Assembly (NCBI GenBank): GCA_030038645.1
Contig: JASHSR010000110.1
Location: 1 to 39,657, forward strand
Origin: Gammaproteobacteria bacterium
GTDB lineage: Bacteria; Pseudomonadota; Gammaproteobacteria; Steroidobacterales; Steroidobacteraceae
Direction of reading: 5' to 3'
Length of the DNA stretch: 39,657 nucleotides
The notes under the pieces: model-generated
What the model saw: only the letters and a program-made list of their open reading frames with translations
What the model was told of the DNA's origin: nothing
The model's database searches: none
Part shown: in pieces, positions 9,106 through 39,657 of the stretch
Numbering within the stretch: position 1 is the stretch's first letter
Layout of the letters: each line of letters opens with the position of its first letter
Translations under genes and position numbers: made by a program

Positions 9106-9360
9106 CTATTCATTCAAGGCTCGATCGATCGCCGCCAGCAGCGCTTTACGTTGCTTGATCGTGTTCACCGGATAACGGTCGAAATCGTTGCGCCTGCTGA
9201 TGTCGGCGAATACCCCAGCCGGGTCCTCGTGAAAGTGCAGAAAGGACTTGGACTTCCTGTAGAAGATTCCAAGTCCTCTCTCTTTGATTCCCGGCCTCAA
9301 TCGGATCTGATCAAGCAAATCTGAAAGCTGCCGCAGAGTATCTTTGCCTGCATGCTTCAC
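9106..9360 (-). CDS. Small hypothetical protein (84 aa)
   Basis: Clean ORF in a locally lower-GC patch with a balanced, non-Arg/Ala-biased composition. Co-directional with the downstream VOC gene. No family recognised. Confidence 0.55.
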   Translation of the reverse strand: MKHAGKDTLRQLSDLLDQIRLRPGIKERGLGIFYRKSKSFLHFHEDPAGVFADISRRNDFDRYPVNTIKQRKALLAAIDRALNE

Positions 9361-9483
9361 GGCGGATACCCAAGGTAGCGATATAAGAATCGCCGGTCAA
9401 CTCCGAGCGCCCGGCGCTCTCACTCATCCATGAGAAAGGCCGGGAAGGGCAGTAGATCGCTTGGGCGTTGCGCCGTGTTGCCG

Positions 9484-13438: not shown

Positions 13439-13504
13439 CACGCACTCCTCGACGCCGTGGCAGCGTCTTCCGGCGGTGACGGCGCTTCTCTTCCCACCCG
13501 CGGC

Positions 13505-15985: not shown

Positions 15986-16003
15986 TGTCCGAAACCGGCA
16001 GCT

Positions 16004-16690: not shown

Positions 16691-16709
16691 GCTCGGCTCC
16701 CCGTGAAGA

Positions 16710-17975: not shown

Positions 17976-18091
17976 CGCATCGCCGGAGGGGAGCCCCGCC
18001 TGTCCGCCGCCACCCAATCGCCCGCTCGCAGAGGGAAGCGGGAGATCCCTGCGAGCTCGCTGATGCCCACCCCACGTCATGGCCGCAGGGT

Positions 18092-18107
18092 TGCAACGGC
18101 CATGCCA
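18092..18107 (-). promoter_or_regulatory. Sigma-54 (-24/-12) promoter facing the efflux operon
   Basis: The minus strand reads TGGCATGGCCGTTGCA against the consensus TGGCACG-N4-TTGCW, with GG and GC correctly spaced. It lies ~105 nt upstream of the adaptor start, and a divergent sigma-54 activator gene is adjacent. Confidence 0.7.
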
Positions 18108-18158
18108 TGGGCAGTCCTGAGTCTTTTCAATGGGTTATATACGCCCGTGGCGATGAGC

Positions 18159-18204
18159 TGTCCGCAGGTGTACAAGTGTCCGGTCACCTGTTCGGATTCG
18201 GACA
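18159..18204. promoter_or_regulatory. Candidate enhancer (UAS) repeats for the sigma-54 activator
   Basis: TGTCCG at 18159 and 18177, with inverted CGGACA at 18199. CAGGTG (18165) is inverted with CACCTG (18185). The repeats sit about 75-125 nt upstream of the predicted transcription start. Confidence 0.4.
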
Positions 18205-18205
18205 A

Positions 18206-19585
18206 TTGGCGCAGACCGCCCTCCAGCCCGCTCGCATTGTGGTCGTCGATGACGAGGACGACATTCTGCTCGCGGCCCGGCTGCTGCTGAAGCGTCACTT
18301 CGAGTCCGTCGAGACCTTGCGCGATCCCGGTCCGCTCGCGGATCTGGTGCGCCGTAACGCCTTCGACGTCCTGTTGCTGGACATGAACTTTGCGACCGGT
18401 GCCGATACGGGTGTCGAAGGACTCGAGCTGCTTTCGCAGATCCTCGCGCTCGACCCGCAAGCGGTCGTCGTGCTCATCACCGCTCACGCCGATGTCGCCT
18501 TGGCCGTCGAGGCGATGAAGAAGGGCGCCGCGGACTTCGTCACCAAGCCCTGGGAGAACGAACGGCTGCTCGCGACCTTGCTCGCGGCCTGGAATCTGCG
18601 CCGCTCGCGGCAGGAAGTCTCCGAATTCCGAGCCCGCAGCCAGGGACTCGCGGAGGCGACGCGGATCGGTGGTGAGATGATCGGCACCTCACCGAGCATG
18701 CTGCGGGTCTTTCAGACAATCCGGCGCGCGGCGCCGACGGAAGCCAACGTGCTCATCCTCGGCGAGAACGGCACGGGCAAGGAGCTGGTCGCGCGCGAGA
18801 TCCACCGCCGTTCGGCTCGCGCCGAGGAGGCCTTCGTGCGGGTGGATCTCGGGACGCTCTCTGCTCAGCTCTTCGAGAGCGAGCTGTTCGGCCATCGCCG
18901 CGGAGCGTTCACCGATGCGAGGCAGGATCGCGTCGGGCTGCTCCGCGCCGCCTCCGGCGGCACGGTCTTCCTCGACGAGATCGGCAACGTTTCCTGGCAT
19001 CTGCAAGGCAAGCTCCTCACGGCGCTCGAGCGCCGCGAAGTCACTCCGGTCGGCTCGGACAAGCCGGAGCCGATCGATGTTCGGCCGATTTGCGCGACGA
19101 ACCTTCCCGCGGAGCGCCTGGCCGATGAGAACGTGTTCCGGCAGGATCTGCTCTATCGGATCAACACGGTGGAGATCGCTCTGCCGCCGCTCCGCGAGCG
19201 GCGGGAGGACATTCCGCTCCTGCTCGAGCACTTCGTCTCGATGTACGCCGAGAAATACAACGTGCCCGCGAAGCGGCTCGGCGCGGCGGCCCTCGAGCGG
19301 TTGATGGCTCACGCCTGGCCGGGCAACGTGCGAGAGTTGCGTCATGCGGTCGAGCGCGCCGTGATCCTGAGTGAGCATGCGATGCTCGAGCCCGGGGATT
19401 TCTCGCTGTCCGGCTCCGGGCCGCCTGCGCCGGCTTCGCCCGAGTCATCGAAACTCGACGCCGTGGAGAAGGAGGCCATCGCCCGAGCGCTCGAGGCACA
19501 CGGAAGGAATATCAGCCGCGCGGCCGAGTCGCTTGGGCTCACTCGCGCCTCGCTCTACCGTCGGATGGAGAAGTATGGCCTTTAG
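18206..19585 (+). CDS. Sigma-54-dependent response regulator (NtrC family: REC, AAA+, Fis-type HTH)
   Basis: REC domain IVVVDDEDDILL...LLDMNF. Walker A GENGTGKE. GAFTDA variant of the GAFTGA loop. C-terminal HTH NISRAAESLGLTRASLYRRM. The start is uncertain: TTG 18206 is favoured, with GTG 18176 and ATG 18107 also in frame. Confidence 0.85.
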   Translation: MAQTALQPARIVVVDDEDDILLAARLLLKRHFESVETLRDPGPLADLVRRNAFDVLLLDMNFATGADTGVEGLELLSQILALDPQAVVVLITAHADVALAVEAMKKGAADFVTKPWENERLLATLLAAWNLRRSRQEVSEFRARSQGLAEATRIGGEMIGTSPSMLRVFQTIRRAAPTEANVLILGENGTGKELVAREIHRRSARAEEAFVRVDLGTLSAQLFESELFGHRRGAFTDARQDRVGLLRAASGGTVFLDEIGNVSWHLQGKLLTALERREVTPVGSDKPEPIDVRPICATNLPAERLADENVFRQDLLYRINTVEIALPPLRERREDIPLLLEHFVSMYAEKYNVPAKRLGAAALERLMAHAWPGNVRELRHAVERAVILSEHAMLEPGDFSLSGSGPPAPASPESSKLDAVEKEAIARALEAHGRNISRAAESLGLTRASLYRRMEKYGL

Positions 19586-20924
19586 CCGCTTCCAAGCCGC
19601 AATGGCGCTGCGCGCCGCAGCCCTCTTCCTCACCATAGCGGCCGCGGCATGGATGATTGCGCAGACGCAATGGTACATGACCATCGCGCTTTGCGTGATG
19701 GCCGCATTCGCGGAGACCGTCCTGCTCGTGCGGTTCTCGACGCAGTCGAGCCGCGAGGTGGCCCGATTTCTCGATGCCTTGTCGTTCGATGACTTGTCGC
19801 AGAGCTTCACCGGCCTCTCGAGCGACGGCGCTCATCGCCAGCTCGGCACTGCGATGGAGCGAGTCCTCGTCCGCTTGCGGGCCAGCCGTTCCGAGCGCGA
19901 CGAGCAGGCGCAGTACCTGCAGACACTCGTCAATCACGTGCCGGTCGCTCTGATCTCGATCGGCGAGCGCGGGTCGATCCGACTGCTCAACATGGCGGCG
20001 CGCCGGGTGTTCGAGACCTCGCTCGCCCACACCGGCCAGCTGTCGCGATACGGCCAGGCCTTTGCGGTCGGCCTCGAGTCCCTGCGTCCAGGCGCCACCG
20101 CGATTCTGCGGATGGAGCGGTCCGCCGGGAGTCTGTTGCTCAAGGCGGCCGTGACCGAGATCGCCGCGGGCGGTACGCGACAGCGCCTCATCTCGCTGCA
20201 GAACATCGACAACGAAATGAGTGCGCAGGAGCTCGCCGCCTGGCAGACGGTCATCCGGGTCATGGCGCACGAGGTGATGAACTCGCTGACGCCGGTATCC
20301 TCTCTCGCCGCGACCGCGCACGACCTCGTGAACGAGGCTCTCGAGCAAACAGTGGCGGATGACCCGCGCGCAGTCCCCCTGACAGATGCCCGGGACGCCC
20401 TGGAGGCGCTCGCTCGCCGCAGCGAAGGTTTGCTGCACTTCGTGCGAGGCCACCGGCGCTTGACCAAGCCCCTCGCGGCGCGGATGGAAGTGGTGCCGGT
20501 CGAGCGGCTCTTTGCGCGCATTCAGCGGCTCCTCGCGAGCGACCTCGCAGACCGCGACATCCGGATGGCGACCCAGGTCGAGCCGCAAACGCTCGAGCTC
20601 GCGATGGACATCGAGCTCCTCGACCAGGCCCTCATCAACCTGTTGCGTAATGCCGTCGAGGCTCTGCGTGATACTCCGATGGGGCTCATCACACTTTCCG
20701 CCCGGCGGGAGTCCGACGGCCGGGTCGTCATCTCGGTCGCCGACAACGGCCCCGGCATTCCGCAGGACGACCGAGAGAGGGTCTTCGTCCCCTTCTTCAC
20801 GACCAAGCGGCACGGCAGCGGCATCGGACTCACGCTCGTGCGGCAGATTGCCGCGGCTCACGGAGCGAGCGTCGATGTCTCCGAGACAGCCGGGGGCGGC
20901 GCAACGGTTCGGCTGAGGTTCTGA
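19575..20924 (+). CDS. Sensor histidine kinase (two TM segments, HisKA, HATPase_c)
   Basis: The start overlaps the regulator stop (ATGGCCTTTAG). H-box MAHEVMNSLTPV. N/G boxes NLLRNAVEA, DNGPGI, GSGIGL. Confidence 0.9.
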   Translation: MAFSRFQAAMALRAAALFLTIAAAAWMIAQTQWYMTIALCVMAAFAETVLLVRFSTQSSREVARFLDALSFDDLSQSFTGLSSDGAHRQLGTAMERVLVRLRASRSERDEQAQYLQTLVNHVPVALISIGERGSIRLLNMAARRVFETSLAHTGQLSRYGQAFAVGLESLRPGATAILRMERSAGSLLLKAAVTEIAAGGTRQRLISLQNIDNEMSAQELAAWQTVIRVMAHEVMNSLTPVSSLAATAHDLVNEALEQTVADDPRAVPLTDARDALEALARRSEGLLHFVRGHRRLTKPLAARMEVVPVERLFARIQRLLASDLADRDIRMATQVEPQTLELAMDIELLDQALINLLRNAVEALRDTPMGLITLSARRESDGRVVISVADNGPGIPQDDRERVFVPFFTTKRHGSGIGLTLVRQIAAAHGASVDVSETAGGGATVRLRF

Positions 20925-21030: not shown

Positions 21031-21085
21031 ATAAGATCCGCTGTCTCGAGAGGCGCAACCCTTGCGCTGGTCAGGGGGTCCCGTG

Positions 21086-23245
21086 ATGATCCGTACGCAC
21101 GCTCTCGCCATGGGCCTGCTGCTGTCGGTCGCGATCGTGGCCGGCGGCGCAATGAGTGAAAGCGCGGCCGCCGCATCGCCGGAGCGTGCCGCTCTCGCGG
21201 CCAACGTCACCGCCAAGCGCCTGGTCAATGCCGCCCGTGAGCCCGGCCAGTGGATGACCTACGGCGGCACCTACTCCGAGCAGCGCTTCAGCAGCCTGAA
21301 GCAGATCAACTCGAGCAACGTGGGCAGGCTCGGACTCGAGTGGTACGCGGACTACGAGACCAACCAGGACCAGCACGGCTCGCCGCTGTACATCGATGGA
21401 GTCATCTACGTCTCGACGGCGCGAGACGTGCTCTATGCGTTCGACGCCAAGACCGGCAAGCAGCTGTGGAAGTACAACCCAATGATCCACGGCGAGCGGC
21501 TGCGCTACAACGTGGGCCTCGTGAACCGCGGCATCGCCGCCTGGCGCGGCAAGATCTACATGGGCACGCTCGATGCCCGCCTGGTCGCGGTGGACGCCAA
21601 GACCGGAAAGCAAGTCTGGTCGACCGATACGGTACCCGCGAGCCTCGGCCTCGGCGACATGACGAATCGGTACGCGATCACCATGGCCCCCCGCGTCGCG
21701 AAGGGCAAGGTGTTCATAGGCGCCTCCGGCGGCGAGTTCGGCGTGCGGGGCTTCATCGCGGCCTACGATGCCGAGACAGGCAAGGAGGTCTGGCGATTCT
21801 GGACCGTGCCCGGCAATCCGGCGAAGGGCTTCGAGAACAAGGCGCTCGCGCGGGCTGCGAAGACTTGGAGCGGGGACTGGTGGAAATTCGGCGGCGGCGG
21901 CACGGTGTGGGACTCGGCCGTCTACGATCCGGTGACCGATCTGCTCTATTTCGGCACCGGCAACGCCACGCCGTGGAATCCGCGCGTGCGCGAGCCGCGC
22001 ATCGACGACGATCTGTATACCGCCTCGATCGTCGCGGTGAATCCGGATACGGGCCGATACGTGTGGCACTACCAGGAAACGCCGGCCGACGCCTGGGACT
22101 TCGATGCGGTCAGTCCGATGATGACCGCGGATCTCACCATCCGCGGCCACAAGAGGCACGTCATCCTGCAGCCCTCGAAGAACGGCTTCTTCTACGTGAT
22201 CGAGGCTGCGACCGGCAAGCTGATCAGCGCCGATCCGTTCACCGTCGAGAATTGGGCCAGTGGCGTGGACGTGGAGACGGGCCGCCCGATCGTCGTGCGG
22301 GGCGCCCGCTACGCAAGCCAGCCGTGGGATGTCGCGCCGGGCCCGCAGGGCGGCCACAGCTGGCACCCGAACGCCTTTAGCCCGCTGACCGGCCTCGTCT
22401 ACATTCCCGCCTGGGAGTCCTATTTCACGATGGCGAACGCTCCGCCCGGCCGCCGTCCACCACCGGGCAGATTCAGTCTCGGTATCGGCATGGGCGTTCG
22501 GCTCGCGCCCGGTCAGCTGCAGCCGTATGACCGCCACGGCTTGAGCGGCCGGCTGGAGGCGTGGGACCCCGTTGCGCGCAAGATCGTGTGGGAAACTCCG
22601 CCGTTCTCTCAGGGCCGCCCAACGGGCGGAGTCCTCGCGACTGCCGGCAACCTCGTCTTCATGGCCAATGGCAGCGGCAAGGTGTTGAGCGCGTACGATG
22701 CGAGAACCGGCGCGAAGCTCTGGAGCTTCGATGCCGAGACCGCGGTGTACGCCGCGCCGATCAGCTACGAGCTCCACGGAGTGCAGTACATCGCGGCGAG
22801 CGTGGGAGGTGCCGTACAGGGCGGCTATTTCGCACCGACCAACGCGCGCATGCTGGTGTTCGCGCTCGGCGGCAAAGCGGTGCTGCCCAAGCCGCTGCCC
22901 TACACGCCCCGGCAGCTCAATCCGCCGCCTCTGACGGCTTCGGCCGGCGTCGTTACGCGCGGCGGCGAGCTCTACTCCCAGTACTGCTCGGTCTGCCATG
23001 GCATCGACGGCCGGCAGGCGCGCTCCAGCTTCCCGAACCTCACCGTCACCCCGCTGCTGTGGACCCAGGACGGCTTCGATGCCGTCGTGTTGCAGGGGGT
23101 GCGGACGGACAAAGGCATGGGCTCTTTCGCAGCGGACTTGAAGCCCGAGGATGCGGTGGCGATCCGCGAGTATTTGATCTCGCGCGCCATCGCGCTGAAG
23201 GCCGCCGGCCCCGCCGCCTTGCGGCCGCGGTTTCCGGGCGGTTAG
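21086..23245 (+). CDS. PQQ-dependent dehydrogenase (methanol/ethanol family) fused to a C-terminal cytochrome c domain (quinohemoprotein)
   Basis: Signal peptide. Beta-propeller motifs (AFDAKTGKQLWKY, AVDAKTGKQVW, AYDAETGKEVWRF, AYDARTGAKLWSF). Single CSVCHG haem motif near the C-terminus. Confidence 0.9.
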   Translation: MIRTHALAMGLLLSVAIVAGGAMSESAAAASPERAALAANVTAKRLVNAAREPGQWMTYGGTYSEQRFSSLKQINSSNVGRLGLEWYADYETNQDQHGSPLYIDGVIYVSTARDVLYAFDAKTGKQLWKYNPMIHGERLRYNVGLVNRGIAAWRGKIYMGTLDARLVAVDAKTGKQVWSTDTVPASLGLGDMTNRYAITMAPRVAKGKVFIGASGGEFGVRGFIAAYDAETGKEVWRFWTVPGNPAKGFENKALARAAKTWSGDWWKFGGGGTVWDSAVYDPVTDLLYFGTGNATPWNPRVREPRIDDDLYTASIVAVNPDTGRYVWHYQETPADAWDFDAVSPMMTADLTIRGHKRHVILQPSKNGFFYVIEAATGKLISADPFTVENWASGVDVETGRPIVVRGARYASQPWDVAPGPQGGHSWHPNAFSPLTGLVYIPAWESYFTMANAPPGRRPPPGRFSLGIGMGVRLAPGQLQPYDRHGLSGRLEAWDPVARKIVWETPPFSQGRPTGGVLATAGNLVFMANGSGKVLSAYDARTGAKLWSFDAETAVYAAPISYELHGVQYIAASVGGAVQGGYFAPTNARMLVFALGGKAVLPKPLPYTPRQLNPPPLTASAGVVTRGGELYSQYCSVCHGIDGRQARSSFPNLTVTPLLWTQDGFDAVVLQGVRTDKGMGSFAADLKPEDAVAIREYLISRAIALKAAGPAALRPRFPGG

Positions 23246-28822: not shown

Positions 28823-30028
28823 CTAGTCGGGCGCCGCGCTCTTGCGCGATTCCTCGACGAAGCCGCCGGGCTCGACGGCGGCCATCGCCTCCGCGAGATG
28901 CACGGATTTGTTGAAGAGCGCCAGCTCCCCGAGGCGACCGGCCCGTACCTTGTTGACGAAGTCGTTGTTGGCGATGTGCATGCGGCCGACGCCGACGAGG
29001 TCGAGCGTCCCGCGGCGCACGCGCTCGGCGAGCAGCGCGAGGTCCCGCTCGACGCAGAGCTCGGAGGGCTCCTCGCCGTCGAACAGGTTTGCGAACATCT
29101 CGACGTTGAGGCCCACGCTGCCGCACGTCATGACGGGCGCGTCGGTCAGGGACCGGGTCCACTCGGCGATGGTGAATTGCGGGTGCGAGCTGCCGGGCCA
29201 TTCGGGCTTGTGGCAGCGGCGCGAGGAGACGTTGAACAGGTCCACGCCCGCCGCGCGCAGCAGCGCGAGCATGGCGCGCAGGTCTTCCGGCCCGGCGGCG
29301 ACCGCCGCTCCGTAATCCACCTCTTTGAATTGGGAGAAGCGGAAGGAGATGACGAAATCGACGCCGGTCGCCCCGCGGACGGCAGAGACGATCTCGGCGG
29401 CGTAGCGGGCTCGCTCGGCGAGCGCGCGGCCGCCGTATTCGTCCTCGCGCCGGTTGGTCTGCGCCCACAGGAACTGGTCGAGCAGGTAGCCGTGCGCGGA
29501 ATGGATTTCGACGCCGTCCGCGCCGAGGTCTCGCGCGTGCACAGCCGCGCGGACGTAGGCGGCCTTCAGCTCCTCGAGATCCTCGCGTGTCATGGCGCGG
29601 CCGTTCGGCCGCCCCGCCTGGATGAGCCCCGATGGACTGAGAGCAGGGTACGAGGCGAGCGGATGCTCCCGGGCCACCTTGCGCATGGCGCCCGGATGCC
29701 ACAGCTGCAGCAGGAATCCCGCGCCTTCGGAGCGTACGGCGTCCACGACCCGCTTCCAGGCGCCGAGCGTCGCGACTTCCAGGCGCCCCATGACCGGCTG
29801 CCAGTACGCGGAGGGGTGATCGGGCGATGTGGATTCGCTGATGATGAGACCCGCCCCGCCCGCCGCGCAGCGGCGCATGTACTCGATCATCTTCGACGTG
29901 GGCGCGCCGTCGTCCATGAATCCTCGCTGCATGCCCGGCATCACGAAGCGGTTGCGCAGCGTCAGGCCCCTGATCGTGAGGGGAGTGAAGAGGACATCCA
30001 GCGCCCGCGCGGGACCCGCGGGCGTCAC
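28823..30028 (-). CDS. NADH:flavin oxidoreductase, Old Yellow Enzyme family
   Basis: LFTPLTIRGLTLRNRFVMPGM N-terminus and HSAHGYLLDQFLW active-site region. The GTG start overlaps the upstream stop (GTGA). Confidence 0.88.
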   Translation of the reverse strand: MTPAGPARALDVLFTPLTIRGLTLRNRFVMPGMQRGFMDDGAPTSKMIEYMRRCAAGGAGLIISESTSPDHPSAYWQPVMGRLEVATLGAWKRVVDAVRSEGAGFLLQLWHPGAMRKVAREHPLASYPALSPSGLIQAGRPNGRAMTREDLEELKAAYVRAAVHARDLGADGVEIHSAHGYLLDQFLWAQTNRREDEYGGRALAERARYAAEIVSAVRGATGVDFVISFRFSQFKEVDYGAAVAAGPEDLRAMLALLRAAGVDLFNVSSRRCHKPEWPGSSHPQFTIAEWTRSLTDAPVMTCGSVGLNVEMFANLFDGEEPSELCVERDLALLAERVRRGTLDLVGVGRMHIANNDFVNKVRAGRLGELALFNKSVHLAEAMAAVEPGGFVEESRKSAAPD

Positions 30029-30756
30029 AAGGTCCCGGTGTCCCGCTTCGGCGGATGCTTGTCCATGCAGAATTCCTCGGGAATCTCATAGCCCGGCCGC
30101 TTCACGTACTCGGCTTTGACGGTCCACGGCCGCGTGTACGACTTCGGGTCGTCGATCGTGAAGCGGGCCTGCAGATGCTTGCCGTCGCGGCTCAGCCGAT
30201 AGCGCTCGGTGAGGTGCAGCGCCTCGGAGTGCGGCAGCCCCGCATCGTCGAGCAGCGTCTCGTCGTTGAAGCCCGCGGAATCGATCACGAGCGTCTTGCC
30301 CTCCCAGCGCGCGACGGAGTAGCCGAGCCAGAGCGGATCGGGGTCCGACGGCAGCGCCTCGTCGATGTACGCGCGGCGCGGCAGGCGATTGAGCTGAAAG
30401 ACGAAGTAGACCACCTTCGGGCGCTGAAGGATCTCGAACGGCTCGTCGACGAACATCAGCCGCGGCAGCCCGGGGGGCAGGCATCGGGTCGTGCCGTCGA
30501 ACGAGCGGTCGCCTCGAGCCGCGGCGGCCAGGTGCCGCTCATAGACGGCGCGGGCGCTCGGCGTGAGCGGAGGCAGTCTGCCCTCGACGGTCCGCAGCGC
30601 ATGGGATGGATGGACGATCGACCAAACGCCCGTGAGATCCGGCGGCACCGCGGCGGCCTGGGGGGCGCCGGCGCGAGCGGCTCCGACACTCGTCCCGAGC
30701 AGCGCGATCAGCAGCCCGGCGCGTAGAAGTCCCGCACGAGCGGCGCCGGCGCTCAT
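30025..30756 (-). CDS. Secreted protein of unknown function, type B member of a four-paralogue family
   Basis: Signal peptide MSAGAARAGLLRAGLLIALLGTSVGAARA. Shared motifs TRCLPPGLPRLM, WEGKTLVIDS, GFND, GLPHS, YTRPWT, EEFC. ATGA overlap with the upstream paralogue. Confidence 0.8.
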   Translation of the reverse strand: MSAGAARAGLLRAGLLIALLGTSVGAARAGAPQAAAVPPDLTGVWSIVHPSHALRTVEGRLPPLTPSARAVYERHLAAAARGDRSFDGTTRCLPPGLPRLMFVDEPFEILQRPKVVYFVFQLNRLPRRAYIDEALPSDPDPLWLGYSVARWEGKTLVIDSAGFNDETLLDDAGLPHSEALHLTERYRLSRDGKHLQARFTIDDPKSYTRPWTVKAEYVKRPGYEIPEEFCMDKHPPKRDTGTL

Positions 30757-31664
30757 TTCGCCACCGTGATGCCGTTCACCGGCGCGTTGCGATTGTTCTC
30801 CTCGCAGATGTACTCCTCGGGCCGCACGTCCGGCCGCCAGTGATAGATTCGCCGATAGCTGTAGGGATGCTCGAGCGTCACGGGATCCTCGACCGTCATG
30901 ACGAGCTCGAGCTCCGCGCCGCCGTCGATCTTGCGGTAGCGCTCGATGAGGTGCAGCTGCGTGGAGTGCGAGCTGCCCTCGTCGTCGATGAACGAGCGGT
31001 CGTCGATCGCGACCGTGTCCACGACGAGCGTATCCCCCTCCCAGTGCCCGACCGAGTCGCCGAGGAAGCTGATGCGCGGATGCTTGGGATGAGGCCGGTT
31101 CATCCAGATGCGGCGCACTTCGTGCGCCACCTCGTGCAGGAAGGTGATCCGTCCCGGCGTCTGGACGATCTCGATCGGATAGGGACTCTCCATCAGCCGC
31201 GGCATGCCGTGCGAGAGGCACTGAGTCTCGGTGTCGGCCTGGGGAATCCCGCGGTTCTTGGCGCGGATGCGCTGCTCGAGGATCTTCATGTACTGCGGTT
31301 TCAGGGGCGGCGGCACGCCGGGCGCGGGCCCGAGCAGGTACTCGTAGCCCTGCAGCCACCAGACCCCTTCGAGGTCGTGGGGGTCCGGGTTGGGTGGCGC
31401 GGAGCCCGGGGGGGCGGGGCCGGCGCCACGCAACGGGGGCGTGAGCGCCAAGGTGGGATCGCCGGTGTTGAACAGGGTCGTCGGACGGTAGGGGCGGAGC
31501 GCCGCATCGCGGGGTCCCGGCCTCTGCGGGGCGGCGCCGGAGTTGGTCTGGGACGCAGGCGCCTGCTGGGCGGCGGCGCCCGCGACTGCAGCGAGCATGC
31601 CGAGGGCGAGCGAGACGCCGAGGCCGACGCGCAGCAGGCCGTGCCTCGAGTTGCAACCGGACAT
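30753..31664 (-). CDS. Secreted protein of unknown function, type A member of the same family (C-terminus CEENNRNAPVNGITVAK)
   Basis: Signal peptide and a Pro-rich linker. Motifs TQCLSHGMPRLM, HEVAHEVRRIW, HWEGDTLVVDT, EEYICEENNRN. RBS GGGGAGGGGG before ATG 31664. Confidence 0.8.
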   Translation of the reverse strand: MSGCNSRHGLLRVGLGVSLALGMLAAVAGAAAQQAPASQTNSGAAPQRPGPRDAALRPYRPTTLFNTGDPTLALTPPLRGAGPAPPGSAPPNPDPHDLEGVWWLQGYEYLLGPAPGVPPPLKPQYMKILEQRIRAKNRGIPQADTETQCLSHGMPRLMESPYPIEIVQTPGRITFLHEVAHEVRRIWMNRPHPKHPRISFLGDSVGHWEGDTLVVDTVAIDDRSFIDDEGSSHSTQLHLIERYRKIDGGAELELVMTVEDPVTLEHPYSYRRIYHWRPDVRPEEYICEENNRNAPVNGITVAK

Positions 31665-31887
31665 TGGCCCCCTCCCCGAACGAGCGCCGCGACCGTCGCG
31701 CTTCCGGGTGTGATCCTACAGGGGGTTCGGCCCTCTGAGAATGGCTTCCCTCGACCGCCTGTTGTACTCTCAAACGTGCCTTGACGGCGAGGAGAGAGAG
31801 CGTCCGGCCGCTTCGTGCGACCGCGCTCAGGGGGCCCGCTTGAGACCGTCTGAAGCCGCGTCACGCCCGCGGCTTCGAGGTGCGAAG

Positions 31888-34407
31888 TTGAGGTATTTGC
31901 AGGGAGAACGAGCGCGCGCTGCGGCGATCCTGATTGCCGGCGCCGCCGTTGCGGTCTTCGCTGGCGCCCTGGTTGCGCCATCCGAAGCCCATGCGGCGGG
32001 ACAGCATCTTACGGTTGCTGCGGAGCAGCATCTGCTCGACAAATACTGTCGCGTCTGTCACAACTTTGATGACTTCGCGGGCGGGATCGAGTTCGAGTCG
32101 TTCAATCCCGGCGACGCCTACGCGAAGCCCGAGCTGACGGAGCGAATGCTCGTCAAGCTGCGTGCCGGGATGATGCCGCCCGTCGGCAAGCCGCGGCCCG
32201 ATCCGGCGGTCGTCCAGGCCTTCGCGACGAATCTCGCGAACGAGATCGACAGCCACGAGAAGCCGAGCCTCGCGATGCCGCGGCTGCATCGCCTGAACCG
32301 CACCGAGTACCGCAACGCGGTGCGCGATCTGCTCGCGCTCGACGTGGATGTCTCGGCGGTGCTGCCGTCCGATGACTCGAGCCACGGCTTCGACAACCAG
32401 GCCGGCACCTTGACGCTCTCGCCCGTGCTGCTCGAAGCCTATCTCTCCGCGGCGGCGAAGATCAGCCGCACGGCCGTTGGGACGGCTACGTCGCCGACCG
32501 AGGCGACCTATGCCGTCGCTCCCGACCGCACGCAGAACTATCACGTCGAGGGTCTGCCCTTCGGCACCCGCGGCGGGCTCCTGATCCGCCACACCTTTCC
32601 CGCCGACGGCACGTACACGTTCAAGATCTACGCCGTGAATCTCGGGAACATGGGTAACTTCCGGCCGTTCGGCGACATCCGCGGCGAGCAGCTCCTCGTC
32701 TATCTCGACGACAAGCGCGTCGCCCAGGTGGACTGGGACAAGGCGCTCGGCGTCGCGCGCTCGTTCGATGCGCTGCCGAACGGCCAGCTGCGCACGATCG
32801 ATGTGACGCTGCCCGTCACGGCGGGGCCGCACCGCATCGGCGTCACGTTCCTCGCGACGAACTACGCGCCGGGGCTCGATCTCAATCACGCGTTCGATCG
32901 CAGCACGATCGAGACGGGCGGCATCCCGGGCTACACGTTCTATCCCCACATCGGCCGCGTGAGAATCGACGGGCCCGTCGACGGGTCGGTGGCGAAGGAC
33001 TCTCCGAGCCGCGAGCGGATCTTCGTGTGCTACCCGAGGCGCCAGAGCGACGAGCAAGCCTGCGCCCATGCGATCGCCGTGACGCTCGCGCGCCGCGCGT
33101 ACCGCGGCTACGACACGCCGCAGGACGTGGACACGCTCATGAAGTTCTACGCGCTCGGCCGTGAGGACGGCTCGTTCGACGCGGGCGTCGAAGCGCTCGT
33201 GGAGCGCGCGCTCGCCGACCCGAAGTTCATCTTCCGCGTGGAGGCGGCGCCGCACGGCCTCGTCGCCGGCGCGGCCTACCGGGTGAACGATCTCGACCTC
33301 GCCTCGAGACTCTCGTTCTTCCTCTGGAGCAGCATTCCGGACGACGAGCTGCTCGAGCATGCGCAGAGGGGAGACCTGCACCGCGACGGGGTGCTGCGCA
33401 GGCAGATCGAGCGCATGCTCGCCGATCCCCGCGCATCGGCCCTCACCACCAACTTCGCCGATCAGTGGCTCGGGCTGCGCGCGCTCGCCTCCTTCGATCC
33501 GGTCGTTGGCCTGTATCCGGACTTCGACGACAACCTGAGACAGGCGTTCAGGCAGGAAGTGGAGCTCTTCTTCACGAGCATCCTCACGGAGAATCGCAGC
33601 ATCCTCGACCTGCTCACCGCGAACTACACGTTCGTCAACGACCGTCTCGCGATGCTCTACGGCATCCCGGGCGTGAAGGGCAGCTACTTCCGCCGCGTCG
33701 TGCTCGACAGCTCGCAGAGCGCGCGCTGGGGACTGCTCGGCAAGGGCGGGATCCTCGCGATCACTTCGCATCCGGACCGGACCTCGCCCGTCGTCCGCGG
33801 CAATTGGGTTCTGAGGACGCTCCTCGGCTCGCCGGCGCCGGATCCGCCGGCGAACGTCCCGGCGCTGAAGCCCAAGCCGCGCGACGCCGCGGGCAACTCC
33901 CGGCCGCAGACGATGCGCGAGCTGATGGAGCAGCATCGGGCCAATCCGGCCTGCGCGAGCTGTCATCGGCTGATGGACCCGATCGGCTTCGCGCTCGAGC
34001 CCTTCGATGCGATCGGCCGCTGGCGCGCGACCGACGGCGGCAGCCCGATCGATACGCGCAGCCGCCTGTACGACGGCACCATGGTGGACGGGCCGGCCGG
34101 CGTGCGGGCGTTCGTGCTGCGCCACAAGCAGCGGTACCTTCTCAACGCCGTCGAGAACCTGATGACTTACGCGCTCGGACGAGCGGTCGCGTACAACGAC
34201 ATGCCGACCGTGCGCGGCATCCTGCGCGAGACGTCGGGCGACGGCTATCGGCTGCGAAGCCTCATCGAGGCGATCGCGATGAGCGATGTCTTCCGCATGA
34301 ACGTCGTGCCGGGGCGAGGTCCCGGGCAGGGGCTCGGCTCTGCGCAGAAAGTTGCATCCGCGACCGGCTCGGCCGCGCCGGGGGTCGGACTCGACCCGGG
34401 TCGCTGA
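31888..34407 (+). CDS. DUF1592/DUF1585/DUF1587/DUF1588/DUF1595-type protein with an N-terminal CXXCH motif
   Basis: LDKYCRVCHNFDD haem-type motif after a hydrophobic N-terminus. Long multi-domain architecture typical of this family. Followed by a DUF1552 gene, the usual pairing. TTG 31888 (GAGGTG 5 nt upstream) is favoured; the longest ORF starts at ATG 31741. Confidence 0.8.
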   Translation: MRYLQGERARAAAILIAGAAVAVFAGALVAPSEAHAAGQHLTVAAEQHLLDKYCRVCHNFDDFAGGIEFESFNPGDAYAKPELTERMLVKLRAGMMPPVGKPRPDPAVVQAFATNLANEIDSHEKPSLAMPRLHRLNRTEYRNAVRDLLALDVDVSAVLPSDDSSHGFDNQAGTLTLSPVLLEAYLSAAAKISRTAVGTATSPTEATYAVAPDRTQNYHVEGLPFGTRGGLLIRHTFPADGTYTFKIYAVNLGNMGNFRPFGDIRGEQLLVYLDDKRVAQVDWDKALGVARSFDALPNGQLRTIDVTLPVTAGPHRIGVTFLATNYAPGLDLNHAFDRSTIETGGIPGYTFYPHIGRVRIDGPVDGSVAKDSPSRERIFVCYPRRQSDEQACAHAIAVTLARRAYRGYDTPQDVDTLMKFYALGREDGSFDAGVEALVERALADPKFIFRVEAAPHGLVAGAAYRVNDLDLASRLSFFLWSSIPDDELLEHAQRGDLHRDGVLRRQIERMLADPRASALTTNFADQWLGLRALASFDPVVGLYPDFDDNLRQAFRQEVELFFTSILTENRSILDLLTANYTFVNDRLAMLYGIPGVKGSYFRRVVLDSSQSARWGLLGKGGILAITSHPDRTSPVVRGNWVLRTLLGSPAPDPPANVPALKPKPRDAAGNSRPQTMRELMEQHRANPACASCHRLMDPIGFALEPFDAIGRWRATDGGSPIDTRSRLYDGTMVDGPAGVRAFVLRHKQRYLLNAVENLMTYALGRAVAYNDMPTVRGILRETSGDGYRLRSLIEAIAMSDVFRMNVVPGRGPGQGLGSAQKVASATGSAAPGVGLDPGR

Positions 34408-34436
34408 GCGAGGGCGGTGCTCGAGAGGTACTGAAC

Positions 34437-35779
34437 ATGCCATTCATCACGAATCGCGCGCTTCCGCGCAGGACCTTCCTCCGGGGACTCGGCACGACGC
34501 TCGCGCTGCCGCTCCTCGAGTCGATGCTACCGGCGCGCGCGCGCGCGTCCGCCAAGTCGCTCCTGCCGACGCGCTTCGTCGGCGCATTCATCCCGCACGG
34601 GGCCGCGCCCGGCTACTGGGTGCCCAAGTCGACCGAGGCTGGATTCGCCTTCCCGTACATCTACGAGCCGCTGCAGCCCTTCCGCAAGCAGGTGGTCCTC
34701 ACCGCCGGCATGTGGTCGCAGTCGTCGGAGAATCCGCCCGGCGTCACCGGCGCCGATCACTTCGTCGCGGCCGCCTTCCTCACCGCCGTCAAGCCGAAGA
34801 AGACCGCGGGACCCGACATCCATGTCGGCACCTCGGTCGATCAGATGATCGCGAGCCACATCGGCCGGGACACGCTGCTGCCCTCCTTGCAGCTCGCGAC
34901 GGAGGATCCGGGCGCCAACTCGAGCAGCTGCGGGGAAGGCTACAGCTGCATCTACACCAACACGATCTCCTGGCAGACGCCGACGCGCCCGCTGCCGATG
35001 GAGATCAATCCGCAGACGGTGTTCGAGCGGATGTTCGGCGACGGCAGCTCCCCCGCGGTGCGGGCGGAGCGCCGCGCGCGCGAGGCGAGCATCCTCGACT
35101 CCGTGACCGGCAGCATCGGCGAGCTCATGCCGCAGGTGCCGCATACGGACCGCGTTCGCCTCGAGGAGTACCTCGACGACGTGCGGGAGATCGAGCGGCG
35201 CCTCGTGATCGCGCGGCGCGCCTCCACGGGCGTGCCGACGAACATCACGGTGCCCTACGGCGTGCCGGAATCCTTCCACGAGCACATCCAGATCCAGTTC
35301 GATCTGCTCGCGCTCGCGTTCCAGGCGGACATCACGCGGGTCGGCGCGGTGCTGTTCGCCCGCGACCTGACGAGCCGCGTGTATCCGAAGAGCGGCACGA
35401 CCATCAGCTTCCATCTCGGCTCGCATCATGGGGAGGACCCCGGCCAGATCGCGGTGTACGCGAAGCTCAACCGCTACCACGTGCAGATGTTCACGTACCT
35501 CGTTCAGAAGCTCGCCGCGATCAAGGAGGCGACGGCACGCTGCTCGACCGCTCGCTGCTGCTGTACGGCTCGAACATGGGCGACTCCAACCAGCACCTGC
35601 ACTACGACGTGCCGCACGTGCTGGTCGGCGGCGCATCGGGCCGGCTGAAGGGCGACCGTCTGCTCTCGTACGCGAGCCGCACGGTCCCCACGGGCAACCT
35701 GCTGCTCAGCATTCTCGACATGTTCGACATCCCCGCCGACCGCTTCGGCGACAGCACCGGCCGGCTGGTCGGCATTTGA
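34437..35779 (+). pseudogene. DUF1552 family protein (Tat signal), reading frame broken by an apparent 1-nt deletion near 35528-35530
   Basis: N-terminus MPFITNRALPRRTFLRGLGTTLALPLL (twin-arginine motif). Frame 1 reads ...KLAAIKE and then runs into nonsense (ATARCSTARCCC...) to a stop at 35648. The +1 frame continues with a family-typical DGTLLDRSLLLYGSNMGDSNQHLHYDVPHVLVGG... to the stop at 35779. Confidence 0.75.
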
Positions 35780-35811
35780 ATGCAGTATTAGAAGCATTAG
35801 GGAGAGGTCTC

Positions 35812-36186
35812 ATGAGGTACCGGCTCGCCGTGAGCGTCGCGCTCCTCGGCTTCGCCTGGGTGGGCGCCGCCTCGGCGCATCACTCGTTCGCGACCTTCGA
35901 CCAGCACGTGACGAAGAGGCTGGTGGGCACGGTCAAGGATTTCCAGTGGACGAACCCCCACATCTGGGTGGACATCCTCGTGAAGTCCCCGCAGACCGGC
36001 AAGATGGAGGAATGGTCGATCGAGGGCGGGAGCCCCAACGGGCTCAGGCGCGCGGGCTGGAAGCGCACGTCCATCAAGCAGGGCGACACGATCGAGGTGG
36101 TCATCCATCCGCTGAAGAACGGCGCGAACGGCGGCAGCATGATGACGGCGACGGTCAACGGCCAGCCGATCGGCCGGCGGTTCTGA
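35812..36186 (+). CDS. Small secreted protein with an HHSF motif directly after the signal peptide (resembles the DUF6152 family)
   Basis: MRYRLAVSVALLGFAWVGAASA|HHSFATFD...FQWTNPHIW...WSIEGGSPNGLRRAGW. RBS GGGAGAGG before ATG 35812. Confidence 0.75.
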   Translation: MRYRLAVSVALLGFAWVGAASAHHSFATFDQHVTKRLVGTVKDFQWTNPHIWVDILVKSPQTGKMEEWSIEGGSPNGLRRAGWKRTSIKQGDTIEVVIHPLKNGANGGSMMTATVNGQPIGRRF

Positions 36187-36217
36187 GGCCGGCGCGGCGG
36201 CAGGCTCGCCGATGCCT

Positions 36218-36257
36218 CAGGCGCGACTCCCATGAGACAGGCGCGACTCCCGTGAAA
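36218..36257 (+). repeat. Tandem 20-bp duplication spanning the ankyrin gene start
   Basis: CAGGCGCGACTCCCATGAGA followed by CAGGCGCGACTCCCGTGAAA (17/20 identical). Confidence 0.8.
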
Positions 36258-37970
36258 CGGCTCCTCGCGACGTTGCTCACCGCGCTCGCATGGCTCTCGT
36301 GCAGCGGGCTCGCGCTCGCCGCGAGCGACTTGGCGGACGCCGTCATGCAGCAGGACTCGGCGCGCGTCGAGGCGCTGCTGAGAGCGCATGCCGAGGTGAA
36401 CGCGACGCAGCCGGACGGCAGCACGGCGCTGCACTGGGCGGCCTACCGGGGCGATGTGCGCACGGCGGCCCTGCTGCTCGCGGCCGGAGCCCACCCGAAC
36501 GTGAGGACCGATACCGGCATGACGCCGCTCCTGCTCGCCTGCCAGGCCGGCAACGCGCAGCTCGTGAAGCTCCTGCTCGATGCGGGAGCGGACGTGAGCG
36601 AGACGCTCACGCACGGCGAGACGCCTCTGATGATGGCCGCGCGGACGGGCAGCGTGCCCGTCATGCAGCTGCTGGTGGCGCACGGCGCGAAGGTGGATGC
36701 GCGCGAGCGCCTGCGCGGCACCACGGCGCTCATGTGGGCCGCGGCGAACAACAACACCGATGCCGTGCGCTTCCTCATCGCGAAGGGGGCGGACGTGAGC
36801 GCACGCTCGGCGAGCGCCGCGCCGGGCCGCAAGCCATACCTCGCGGAGACGGGCCGCTCCCGCATCTCGCAGTTCGCGTACGGGTACGGCCTCGCGGGCA
36901 TCATCGTCAAGCAGGCCTCGGCGCAGTCGCAGAAGCAGGTGCACGAGGAGATCGAGACGGCCCGCGCCGTGCTCGAGCGCTACCCGCTGCCGAAGCTGCC
37001 CCCCGAGAGCAAGAAGAGATGGGGCGGATTGACGCCGCTGATCTTCGCCGCGCGCCAGGGCGATCTCGCGACGGTGAAGGTGCTCCTCGCCGTCGGCGCG
37101 AACGTCAACGAGATGAGCGAGTTCGGCTGGACGCCGCTGCTCGTCGCCACGCAGAACCGCTACTACCAGCTCGGCGCGTATCTGCTGAAGCACGGCGCCA
37201 ATCCCAACCTCGCCAACGAGGGCGGCTGGAATCCGCTCTACATCGCGACGGACAACCGCAACATCGCGAACGGCGACTATCCAGTGCGCAAGCCGGACAT
37301 GGACCACCTCGACTTCATCAAGCTGCTGCTCGCCGCCGGGGCGAACCCCAACCTGCGGATGCGGTCGAGCCTCGACACGCGCACTGTCTTCACGAACCAG
37401 TGGCTACAGGAGGATGGCGCGACGCCCTTCCTGCGCGCCGCCCAGTCGGGCGACCTCGTGCTGATGAAGCTGCTGATGGCGCACGGGGCCGACTGGCGGA
37501 TTCCGACGTACATCAACGTGACGCCGCTCATGGTGGCGAGCGGCATCGGATGGGTCGAGGGCGTCACGTACGAGTGGTCGCCGAAGGAGACTTACGAGAC
37601 GGTGAAATTCCTGCTCGACCTCGGCGCGGACGTGAATGCGCAGGACCTCGTCGACCGGCGCACCGCGCTCATGGGCGCTGCGCACAAGGGAAGGAACGAC
37701 GTGGTCCAGCTGCTCGTGGACCGCGGCGCCGATCTCTCCCTCCACGACATCGGAAGCCGCGACACGGTTCACGCGCTCGCGGGCGTGAGCTGGCAGGCGA
37801 TCGATTACGCGGACGGCCTGGTGCGCGTCGGCGTGCAGTCCGCGATTCCGCACCCGCAGACGGCCGCGTTGATTCGCCGTCTCATGATCGAGCGCGGCCT
37901 GCCGGTGCCCCCGGCGGGGCGCACGCTCGCCTCCATCTGCATCACGGCGCTCTGCCGCGGCGCCGAGTGA
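36252..37970 (+). CDS. Secreted ankyrin-repeat protein (~572 aa)
   Basis: Signal-like VKRLLATLLTALAWLSCSGLALA. Many ANK units (TALHWAAYRGDVRTAALLLAAGAHPN, TPLLLACQAGNAQLVKLLLDAGADV, TPLMMAARTGSVPVMQLLVAHGAKV and others). GTG start with no clear SD. Confidence 0.8.
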   Translation: MKRLLATLLTALAWLSCSGLALAASDLADAVMQQDSARVEALLRAHAEVNATQPDGSTALHWAAYRGDVRTAALLLAAGAHPNVRTDTGMTPLLLACQAGNAQLVKLLLDAGADVSETLTHGETPLMMAARTGSVPVMQLLVAHGAKVDARERLRGTTALMWAAANNNTDAVRFLIAKGADVSARSASAAPGRKPYLAETGRSRISQFAYGYGLAGIIVKQASAQSQKQVHEEIETARAVLERYPLPKLPPESKKRWGGLTPLIFAARQGDLATVKVLLAVGANVNEMSEFGWTPLLVATQNRYYQLGAYLLKHGANPNLANEGGWNPLYIATDNRNIANGDYPVRKPDMDHLDFIKLLLAAGANPNLRMRSSLDTRTVFTNQWLQEDGATPFLRAAQSGDLVLMKLLMAHGADWRIPTYINVTPLMVASGIGWVEGVTYEWSPKETYETVKFLLDLGADVNAQDLVDRRTALMGAAHKGRNDVVQLLVDRGADLSLHDIGSRDTVHALAGVSWQAIDYADGLVRVGVQSAIPHPQTAALIRRLMIERGLPVPPAGRTLASICITALCRGAE

Positions 37971-37997
37971 GGGAGCCGAAGCCGTTGCCGCCCGCGC

Positions 37998-38903
37998 TCA
38001 CATGCGGTGCGTGTCGGTGCAGACGTTCTCCTTGAGGCTCATGCCCGGCTGCCTCGCGAGCGTGAAGCGGGTCGTCCACGGACGGGTGTAGTAGTCCGGG
38101 TCGGTAATGGTGACCGAGCCCTCGATTCGGTTGCGTCCCGACAGCCTGTAGCGCTCCTGCACCTCGAGCTTCTCGCCGTGCGGCAGGCCGGAGTAGTCGA
38201 GCCAGGTCCTGTCGTTGAAGCCGATCGTCTCGATGATGAGCGTCCGCCCTTCGATGCGAGCGATCGACGAGCCGAGCCAGGTGGGATCCGGATCCTCGGG
38301 CAGTGTCTTGTCCCAGTAGATGATGCGGAACGTGTGGTTCACTTCGTGAACGAAGTCCACGCTGCGCGTCGTCTGCAGGATCAGGAAGGGGTACGGCGCA
38401 TAGAGCAGCCTCGGCACGCCGTGCATCAGGCAGGCGCTGATCGGATCGATCGTGCGGTCGCCGCCCTTCAACGCCGCCTGGCGCTTTGCGTATTCCGCCT
38501 TGCCCGCCGCGTTGAGCGGCGGCTCGCGTCCATCGGCCGTGAGCAGGTGAGTGATTCGCCGCGTCATCGCCCACTTGCCGGTGAAATTCGGCGTGCCGGG
38601 CGGCGGCTGCTCGAACAAGGGATCGGCCGGCGTGCCGGTCGCAGGGTCGGCGCTCGCGGAGTCGCCGCTCGTAGGGCCGGCGCTCCCAGCGTCGGCGCTC
38701 GCAGGGTCGCCGGCCGCGGAGACTTCGGCCGCGGCTGCGCCAGCTGCGGCGAAGGCGTGCGGCGCCGCGAGCATCAGCGCCGCCGCGGCGGCGATCGAGA
38801 GAGCAAGCGCCGCGACGAATCCTGCAGTCGGTGCCGGCGCGCGCCTCGCAGCCGGCGCGAGTCCCGCGAGGCGCCCCGCGCCCCCGTGCTGTCCCGCGCT
38901 CAC
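37998..38903 (-). CDS. Secreted protein of unknown function, type B paralogue with an Ala/Ser/Asp-rich linker
   Basis: Motifs SACLMHGVPRLL, HEVNHTFRIIYW, IEGRTLIIET, GFNDRT, GLPHG, YYTRPWT, ENVCTD. The GTG 38903 start is inferred by analogy with the ATGA junction of the other pair (here GTGA). Confidence 0.75.
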   Translation of the reverse strand: MSAGQHGGAGRLAGLAPAARRAPAPTAGFVAALALSIAAAAALMLAAPHAFAAAGAAAAEVSAAGDPASADAGSAGPTSGDSASADPATGTPADPLFEQPPPGTPNFTGKWAMTRRITHLLTADGREPPLNAAGKAEYAKRQAALKGGDRTIDPISACLMHGVPRLLYAPYPFLILQTTRSVDFVHEVNHTFRIIYWDKTLPEDPDPTWLGSSIARIEGRTLIIETIGFNDRTWLDYSGLPHGEKLEVQERYRLSGRNRIEGSVTITDPDYYTRPWTTRFTLARQPGMSLKENVCTDTHRM

Positions 38904-39657
38904 TTGGCCACCGTGATGCCGTTCACCGGCGCGTTGCGGTTGTTCTCCTCGCACGAGTACTCCTCGATGCGCACGTCACCGCGCCAGGGATACGTCCGCT
39001 CCGTCGTCCAGGGCCGCGTGTAGTGATCGGGGTCCTCGATGGTGATCAGATCGCGCAGCTCGGCGCCGCCGTACTGGTTGGTGAACCGGGTGAACCGCTC
39101 GGTGACTTTCAGCTTCAGGCCGTGCGAGAGCGACTCCTCGTCGATCTGCGTCCGATCATTGAAATGATCGGTGACGACGACGAGCGTGTTGCCCTCCCAG
39201 TGGCCGACGGAGTACCCCATGAAGGTCCGCGGCGTATCGGGGGGAGGGGGCTTGCCGTCCATGTGGATGAACCGCACGTTGTGCGCCACTTCGTGCAGGA
39301 TGGTGATCAACCCCGGGGTATAGACGAACTGGATGGGGTAGGGCGAGGCCATGATTCTCGGCACGCCGTGCGGGAAGCAGCGCGTCGGCGCATCGGCGAT
39401 CGGCCTGCCGAGGCTCTCCATGTAGAGGTGGTGCTTGCGGCTCGCCGCCTCGAGCGGTGTGAGCGGGAGGAGCTTCGCCGACTCGTCCGGGGACATCGGC
39501 CGAGGGGTGATCGGCCGGAAGGTCCGGTCATAGCCGCGGGTCCACCAGACGCCGGAGAAATCGCGCAGGTCCTTCGGCGCCGGGTTTTTGTTCCACTCCA
39601 CGGCCTGCTCGGCGGCTCGCTTCTCGCGCGCGGCGACCCGCTCGGACGCCGCGGCCT
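38900..39657 (-). CDS. Type A paralogue (C-terminus CEENNRNAPVNGITVAK), 5'-partial at the window edge
   Basis: Motifs TRCFPHGVPRIM, HEVAHNVRFIH, HWEGNTLVVVT, YTRPWT, EEYSCEENNRN. The frame stays open upstream of GTG 39601 to the window end, and no signal peptide is yet seen. Confidence 0.8.
   Translation of the reverse strand, partial: AAASERVAAREKRAAEQAVEWNKNPAPKDLRDFSGVWWTRGYDRTFRPITPRPMSPDESAKLLPLTPLEAASRKHHLYMESLGRPIADAPTRCFPHGVPRIMASPYPIQFVYTPGLITILHEVAHNVRFIHMDGKPPPPDTPRTFMGYSVGHWEGNTLVVVTDHFNDRTQIDEESLSHGLKLKVTERFTRFTNQYGGAELRDLITIEDPDHYTRPWTTERTYPWRGDVRIEEYSCEENNRNAPVNGITVAK

Follow-up and report, generated by a model that had tools for sequence, protein, structure and literature searches.

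A stretch of 39,657 nucleotides (nt) from a Steroidobacteraceae contig (JASHSR010000110.1; the whole stretch is hereafter 'the window') closes with an eleven-kilobase (kb) cluster of genes for mostly exported proteins. Comparison with related loci reveals that its core is a module formed by a DUF6152 gene and tandem paralogues of an unnamed family with two types, A and B (the A/B family), to which a trio of genes encoding a DUF1592-type protein, a DUF1552 (HXXSHH) protein and an ankyrin-repeat (Ank) protein is recurrently added. The linkage of these genes is strongly supported. We tentatively read the region as a periplasmic, metal-dependent redox (oxidoreductase) system that may act on small ligands and comprise two linked exported modules, an assignment we regard as possible though short of probable.

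A profile of the A family, scanned against a genome collection, returned at least 592 confirmed stretches, of which 80 loci were kept, all from metagenome-assembled genomes (MAGs) of Steroidobacteraceae, Caulobacterales, Sphingomonadaceae, Bryobacterales, Vicinamibacterales, other Acidobacteriota, Verrucomicrobiia and Acidimicrobiales, and the six-frame open reading frames (ORFs) of these A/B-centred loci were scored against the window proteins. DUF6152 was found in 55 of the 80 and lay no more than 500 bp from an A/B gene in 48. A reciprocal scan of metagenomes, centred on DUF6152 through a narrower DUF6152 alignment and so unselected for A/B, also gave 80 loci, with A/B present in 54, and in 48 the two lay 500 bp apart or less; of the 27 loci flanked on each side by 1 kb or more, 23 carried A/B. 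Ten of the most distant DUF6152-like ORFs with A/B neighbours all exceeded the Pfam cut-off, at 57-126 bits. Because this reciprocal, DUF6152-centred scan also finds A/B, the conserved unit is DUF6152 plus A/B, usually without DUF1592, DUF1552 or ankyrin genes, and thus smaller than the whole eleven-kb cluster that a first-pass annotation of the window had put forward as one system. Three or four tandem DUF6152 genes were observed on two short metagenome contigs (L134, L156).

The larger gene set is syntenic well beyond the window: A/B pairs, DUF1592, DUF1552, DUF6152 and ankyrin genes recur together among other Steroidobacteraceae as well as Acidobacteriota (Vicinamibacterales, Bryobacterales), at times in rearranged order. 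DUF1592, DUF1552, Ank and DUF6152 occur together in 10 of the 80 A/B-centred loci (5 Steroidobacteraceae, 5 Acidobacteriota), and every genome locus with both DUF1592 and DUF1552 (n = 10) also had Ank and DUF6152. Some loci resemble the window in holding both flanking A/B pairs (L012, L022-L024, L092, L093), while two Steroidobacteraceae MAGs (L007, L010) carry A-B divergent from DUF1592-DUF1552-DUF6152-Ank, with a MacAB-type efflux operon (L007 1-3359; L010 1-3596) directly beside the ankyrin gene in place of the second A/B pair. A rearranged form with unchanged gene content sets A-B-DUF6152 convergent with Ank-DUF1592-DUF1552 (L025, L094, L098, L100). The L007 locus additionally holds, at 14281-20723, a second operon of the form DUF1592-DUF1552-X-Ank, in which X, a metallo-beta-lactamase-fold gene, occupies the DUF6152 slot.

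Within the window, an ORF map and a Pfam scan bore out the gene list and gene order first proposed (Table 1).

Table 1. Genes and control region of the cluster, in window coordinates.
Feature	Position	Strand	Description
OYE-family flavin mononucleotide (FMN) oxidoreductase	28823-30028	-	401 amino acids (aa); PF00724 E 2e-52
B1, type-B protein of the unnamed A/B family	30025-30756	-	243 aa; signal-like N-terminus
A1, type-A member of the A/B family	30753-31664	-	303 aa; signal peptide, Pro-rich linker, predicted barrel domain
Divergent intergenic control region, A1/DUF1592 gene	31665-31887		Sequence blocks kept in relatives
DUF1592-type protein, PSD3-PSD5-PSD4-PSCyt3-PSD2	ORF 31741-34407; likely start 31888	+	N-terminal signal or anchor
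DUF1552 (HXXSHH)	34437-35779	+	PF07586 E 5e-79; Tat (twin-arginine translocation) motif RRTFLRG; frameshifted here
DUF6152	35812-36186	+	124 aa; PF19649 E 3e-32; ASA/HHSFATFD (slash, cleavage)
Exported ankyrin-repeat protein	36252-37970	+	572 aa; GTG start; Ank families E 1e-69
B2, second type-B paralogue	37998-38903	-	301 aa; GTG start; convergent with the ankyrin gene
A2, second type-A paralogue	38900-39657 (window end)	-	5' end cut; 251 aa visible

The frame of A2 stays open through the last base of the window, which seems to span the whole contig, and the gene is truncated by the contig end. Translational coupling of the minus-strand genes, noted from the start, is visible as 4-nt overlaps (ATGA at A1/B1, GTGA at B1/OYE and at A2/B2), and the supposed paralogy of the A and B proteins is matched by identities of 49% between A1 and A2, 45% between B1 and B2 and 36% between A1 and B1. 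Signal-like N-termini agree with the export claimed for every product except OYE, as judged by a crude hydropathy check. No protein of the cluster matched an unrelated, characterised function. An NCBIfam scan gave no match for any protein of the cluster other than OYE and ankyrin, whose own matches were generic and below cut-off. The nearest homologues come from Steroidobacteraceae MAGs and soil metagenomes.

The first-pass annotation had also counted the OYE reductase (Pfam Oxidored_FMN, 178.8 bits against a cut-off of 27) among the members of the system. An OYE homologue is carried by 0 of the 80 related genome loci, and its slot is taken in close relatives by a PF00144 (beta-lactamase-fold) gene (L007) or a small unannotated ORF (L010). 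Because it is missing from every related locus, we place OYE outside the system: it is a lineage-specific neighbour, a local passenger. NCBIfam equivalog matches that might have named its subfamily all fell far under their cut-offs.

The DUF6152 protein, which PF19649 recognizes at 111.2 bits (cut-off 27), opens with a Sec signal that ends in ASA, and cleavage placed by the AxA rule would expose His-His at the mature N-terminus. This feature, singled out at first sight in the window protein, proved general, with AxA/HH near-universal in 62 sequences from several phyla and both histidines (H5, H6) invariant in alignment A6. An Asn-Pro-His motif (H50) is likewise invariant across phyla, and a Glu (E71) nearly so; H50 and E71 are candidates for completing a histidine brace with the N-terminus. 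An AlphaFold2 model (predicted local distance difference test, pLDDT, 78) runs beta1-3, helix, beta4-5, the topology of an oligonucleotide/oligosaccharide-binding (OB) fold, and Foldseek aligned it, with weak scores, to the OB folds of single-stranded DNA-binding protein (SSB), aminoacyl-tRNA synthetases and Mop. A lytic polysaccharide monooxygenase (LPMO) was considered and rejected on fold, the OB topology being distinct from an immunoglobulin-like beta-sandwich.

According to experiments published in 2025, a conserved His that becomes the first mature residue once the signal peptide is removed is a mark of metal-binding proteins, the examples given being DUF4198 (which binds Ni), DUF6702 and the 'anglerases' (PMC12537917). 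We found no mention of DUF6152 in the searched literature, nor in the text or supplements of that paper. DUF6152 shares with these secreted proteins, and with copper binders of the YcnI/CopC type, a signal peptide, a mature His1 and further conserved His or carboxylate residues, but differs from them in its predicted OB fold, its two consecutive His residues and its A/B and cytochrome partners. The residue pattern lends moderate support to the proposal that DUF6152 may bind a transition metal through His-His, the Asn-Pro-His motif and Glu.

The A/B family is large. Its profile, searched against 1.84 billion representatives, retrieved 16,206 clusters (50% identity) at E<=1e-3 and 9,503 at E<=1e-10, and all source annotations read 'hypothetical protein'. 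Pfam and NCBIfam gave no real match to the window A/B proteins, Pfam found no family common to 109 diverse members, and A/B profiles built from 4 and from 109 sequences, searched together with DUF6152 and DUF1552 against all Protein Data Bank (PDB) chains, found no credible match; EF-G hits in these sequence searches were dismissed as chance (E>=0.016). A hydrophobic N-terminal segment is present in 120 of 136 representatives. The Cys pair that had been noticed in the window proteins holds across the family, C149 occurring in 100% and C287 in 94% of 177 members, alongside conserved R184, G202, G210, E241, D260 and E284 and no universal His. Copy number reaches five or six per locus, with several loci per genome. 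Because the genes are tandem and coupled, and because two-domain fusions occur (21 among the top 150 family representatives), we take A and B to act in pairs.

An AlphaFold2 model of A1 (mean pLDDT 80, core mostly >90) places a helix before an antiparallel barrel spanning approximately residues 95-288. Its top PDB matches by Foldseek were CRABP2, FABP, myelin P2 and the dinoflagellate luciferase barrel, all weak (E ~2e-3), with template-modelling (TM) scores against FABP/CRABP of 0.21-0.30 on the query and 0.4-0.57 on the target. The fold predicted for the A/B proteins, an up-and-down beta-barrel with a helix, may resemble that of calycins (FABPs, lipocalins); they share no sequence similarity with that group, have a larger domain of ~190 aa with a conserved disulfide, are predicted to be exported and come as obligate tandem pairs or fusions. 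We predict an exported, disulfide-stapled, calycin-like barrel that would bind ligand or act as a catalyst and would work in pairs. An HExxH motif in A1, A2 and B2 raised the candidate of a zincin, which was rejected: the motif spans a modelled beta-hairpin (strands 172-177 and 183-188) rather than an alpha-helix, and its first His is retained in 41 of 177 members.

The DUF1592-type protein scores well above the Pfam cut-offs of 23-34 in each of its domains (PSD3 85.6, PSD5 47.6, PSD4 153.2, PSCyt3 124.1 and PSD2 59.7 bits). Its gene probably starts at TTG 31888 and not at ATG 31741, because a GAGGTG Shine-Dalgarno sequence precedes that codon, a signal or anchor follows it and the resulting 839 aa suit the 818-847 aa of relatives. 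The first-pass annotation had recognized one CXXCH motif; that motif, the N-terminal CRVCH, is present, but the count is two, with CASCH at ORF residue 738 inside PSCyt3 (662-765). Full-length homologues from two phyla keep both motifs without exception (18 of 18), and the protein is a probable di-haem c-type cytochrome on this motif evidence.

DUF1552 begins 29 nt past the DUF1592 gene, an adjacency found in all related loci, and is recognized by PF07586 at 266.5 bits (cut-off 30), with HLGSHH as its signature motif. The twin-arginine signal attributed to it (PRRTFLRG, then LGTTLALPLL) holds in 19 of 19 homologues, in which RRT[FV]L[RKQ]G is invariant, as are HxxSHH and other His, Asp and Cys residues, all of which fits a putative cofactor-bearing Tat substrate. 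The ORF, however, is not intact in the window: one G is lost from a GGG run (GGAGGGC to GGAGGC, near 35527-35530), which puts the C-terminal 82 aa in another frame. Three metagenome contigs (L001-L003), otherwise identical over the aligned 182 nt, carry an intact 447-aa gene, and the loss of the G may be an assembly error at the homopolymer or mark a strain-level pseudogene.

The pair has known counterparts. Genes with PSCyt3 in Verrucomicrobia and Planctomycetes usually adjoin a family of unknown genes, and their function is not known (PMC5615132). The planctomycete PSCyt3/PSD (DUF1592, DUF1588, DUF1587, DUF1585, DUF1595) and HXXSHH pairs agree with those of the window in domain set and order, in a CXXCH within PSCyt3 and in the combination of Tat signal and HxxSHH. 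The window pair differs in its hosts (Gammaproteobacteria and Acidobacteriota) and in the added exported ankyrin protein, the in-operon DUF6152 and the flanking A/B genes; no ankyrin, DUF6152 or A/B partner was found described for the planctomycete pairs in the searched literature. Another point of comparison is Cbp2D of Cellvibrio japonicus, a secreted protein with a c-type cytochrome domain (X183) and DUF1587, proposed as electron donor to copper LPMOs (PMC8981238). Cbp2D resembles the window system in joining an extracytoplasmic cytochrome c to a PSD-type domain and in having a proposed partner that holds copper by an N-terminal His. It differs in bearing carbohydrate-binding modules and in having no DUF1552 partner, while in the window no polysaccharide link was seen and DUF6152 has a predicted OB fold.

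The ankyrin protein of the window has a signal peptide, MKRLLATLLTALAWLSCSGLALA, and its homologues beside DUF1552 all keep a hydrophobic N-terminus and a mature start SD[LV]ADAVM. A periplasmic ankyrin protein of Pseudomonas aeruginosa, AnkB, is required for full activity of the catalase KatB. Both are exported ankyrin-repeat proteins encoded beside a haem enzyme, a catalase for AnkB and here, putatively, the DUF1592/DUF1552 pair.

Between the divergent A1 and DUF1592 genes, nine relatives keep the blocks GAGnnTACAACAG and GCCATTCTC and share a GC-rich hairpin, GAAGCnCGCGGG...CGCGnGCTTC, just 5' of the DUF1592 start. These blocks could be a regulator site or an element of the 5' untranslated region. 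Rfam, run on the whole window, matched only a tRNA and no family in this intergenic region, where a promoter and terminator consensus scan gave no sigma-70 match and nothing over shuffled sequences.

Genes encoding CXXCH motifs are enriched approximately fourfold beside the A/B-DUF6152 core (28 of 79 loci): as delimited by a crude gene caller, they make up 7.6% of genes no more than three genes away against 2.0% at five or more genes (Fisher p = 5e-5). Several Acidobacteriota and a Verrucomicrobiia MAG (L051, L053, L054, L072, L077, L081; for example, L072 134-13560) extend the core to a supercluster of a LuxR-type regulator, two HtrA-like proteases, three A/B genes, an intradiol dioxygenase, two cytochromes c, two A/B genes, DUF6152 and an epoxide hydrolase. 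More loosely linked recurrent neighbours are NHL propellers (15 loci), pyrroloquinoline quinone (PQQ) dehydrogenases (14 of 80 genome loci, within 10 kb of A/B genes; also L094), SGL propellers (8 loci), Amidohydro_2 (8 loci), TonB-dependent receptor-like proteins (8 + 5 loci) and paired DUF6644 membrane proteins (6 loci). The DUF6644 pairs lie beside A/B-DUF6152 (L035 10700-11768, L055, L070, L079, L028, L069); they are hydrophobic proteins of ~160 aa with about four membrane helices by eye and conserved His in hydrophobic segments, and may serve as a membrane partner, whether as a transporter or by carrying electrons through haem b. A seemingly 'recurrent 300-aa family' of neighbours was discarded as a gene-caller artefact antisense to A/B genes.

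The remainder of the window, 5' of the cluster, encodes a hybrid sensor kinase, an S9 peptidase, a PQQ quinohaemoprotein dehydrogenase (21062-23245, 6 kb upstream of the cluster), a sigma-54 two-component pair and a MacB/TolC-type efflux system (9484-18080), this last an ATP-binding cassette (ABC) system of two MacB-like permeases of 826-829 aa, an ATPase, a membrane-fusion protein and a TolC-like protein. ARAGORN identified a tRNA-Gln pair (anticodons CTG and TTG) at 510-666, the second of which alone was matched by Rfam, barely over threshold. GC content rises from ~0.60-0.64 in 1-16000 to 0.66-0.73 in 17000-39657.

How might such a system work? In the redox reading that we favour, signal-peptide cleavage would expose the DUF6152 His-His, which together with Asn-Pro-His and Glu would most likely chelate a transition metal, and Tat export of DUF1552 would imply a folded or cofactor-loaded cargo. 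The DUF1592 di-haem cytochrome would then shuttle electrons between the respiratory chain and the DUF1552/DUF6152 metal centres. The calycin-like A/B barrels, paired as coupled genes or fusions, would most likely hold a small ligand and may carry or present a small-molecule substrate, with the ankyrin protein a likely scaffold or assembly factor. The metallo-beta-lactamase-fold gene in the DUF6152 slot of L007 also counts for a metal site, and the two other cytochromes c in the acidobacterial and verrucomicrobial version of the cluster count for redox chemistry. Electron flow and the A/B ligand are conjecture in this scheme, and we infer haem attachment, ligand binding and physical contacts between the components.

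Several points weigh against it. To our knowledge, no component has a characterised homologue. The N-terminal stretch of the DUF6152 model, which bears the His-His, reaches a pLDDT of only ~55, and all fold matches are weak (Foldseek E ~1e-3 or higher, TM 0.3-0.6). The A/B proteins have no universal His/Cys metal site, their invariants being the Cys pair, Arg, Glu and Asp, and their high paralogue number fits substrate diversity without naming a substrate. The CXXCH enrichment relies on that GC3-based caller and on phylogenetically related loci. Were the DUF1552 frameshift real, the second module would be defective in this window. Furthermore, 38 of the 48 loci with A/B-DUF6152 adjacency lack DUF1592, DUF1552 and Ank; with the trio missing from most such loci, the modules must be able to function separately, and any electron transfer linking them is conjectural.

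Much of the same evidence can be read as a periplasmic system for metal acquisition or trafficking rather than an oxidoreductase, which we consider rather unlikely. DUF6152 would here be a metallochaperone whose His-His takes a metal (Cu, Ni, Zn or other) and hands it on to DUF1552-like enzymes or membrane transporters, and the A/B barrels would bind metal or a metallophore. Calycin-like and small beta-barrel metal proteins exist in ZinT, a metal binder, and CusF, a copper chaperone, and both the recurrence of TonB-dependent receptor genes by the core and the DUF6644 membrane-protein pairs adjoining it in 6 loci would suit such a role. So would the N-terminal His pattern, shared with published secreted metal binders of which several are sequestering or transport proteins rather than enzymes (PMC12537917). 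Yet the heavy A/B paralogy would be unusual in metal homeostasis, the A/B proteins have no conserved His/Cys/Met site, neither a metal-responsive regulator nor a metal transporter lies consistently alongside, and the enrichment of cytochromes c would be left unexplained.

A different partition of the genes, which we hold to be unlikely, would see two systems that are frequent neighbours yet independent of each other: DUF1592-DUF1552-Ank, built on the long-known PSCyt3/HXXSHH pair, would have a role of its own, unrelated to A/B-DUF6152, and the two would share only an island or a regulator. The absence of the trio from most A/B-DUF6152 loci points this way, as do the PSCyt3 and unknown-family pairs of Verrucomicrobia and Planctomycetes, reported without mention of such partners (PMC5615132), and a locus (L008) with A-B-Ank and a TonB-dependent receptor and neither DUF1592 nor DUF1552. 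Against it, the DUF6152 gene lies inside the DUF1592-DUF1552-DUF6152-Ank operon in Steroidobacteraceae, the gene set is found again in a second phylum and survives rearrangement, and all 10 genome loci with DUF1592 and DUF1552 also hold Ank and DUF6152. Adjacency by chance, or ORFs that are artefacts of high GC, is so improbable that we exclude it: long spurious ORFs are numerous in this high-GC window, but every gene of the cluster has homologues under selection and Pfam matches or a large family, and synteny is kept across phyla.

The DUF1592/DUF1552 pair, plentiful in Planctomycetes, Verrucomicrobia and soil bacteria, is known but orphaned, having lacked a function since its first description. 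The searched literature does not describe its ties to Ank, DUF6152 and A/B, the A/B family itself or the reciprocal linkage of DUF6152 with A/B. With three more partners now tied to the pair, hypotheses for its function are narrowed to metal-dependent redox chemistry in the periplasm. The A/B family is frequent in Acidobacteriota and Steroidobacteraceae, dominant yet poorly cultured groups in soil, and its tight, reciprocal linkage with DUF6152 delimits a small module, two or three genes in size, open to direct expression and assay. A bolder proposal, which we think improbable at present, is that DUF6152 represents a new brace-like N-terminal-His metal centre on an OB fold and, with its obligate A/B pairs, forms a widespread extracytoplasmic oxidative system of soil bacteria fed by c-type cytochromes, including PSCyt3/HXXSHH. 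If true, the metal site would add one more fold to the N-terminal-His class, and the cytochrome-fed oxidative system would provide the first functional handle on the 20-year-old orphan PSCyt3/HXXSHH pair.

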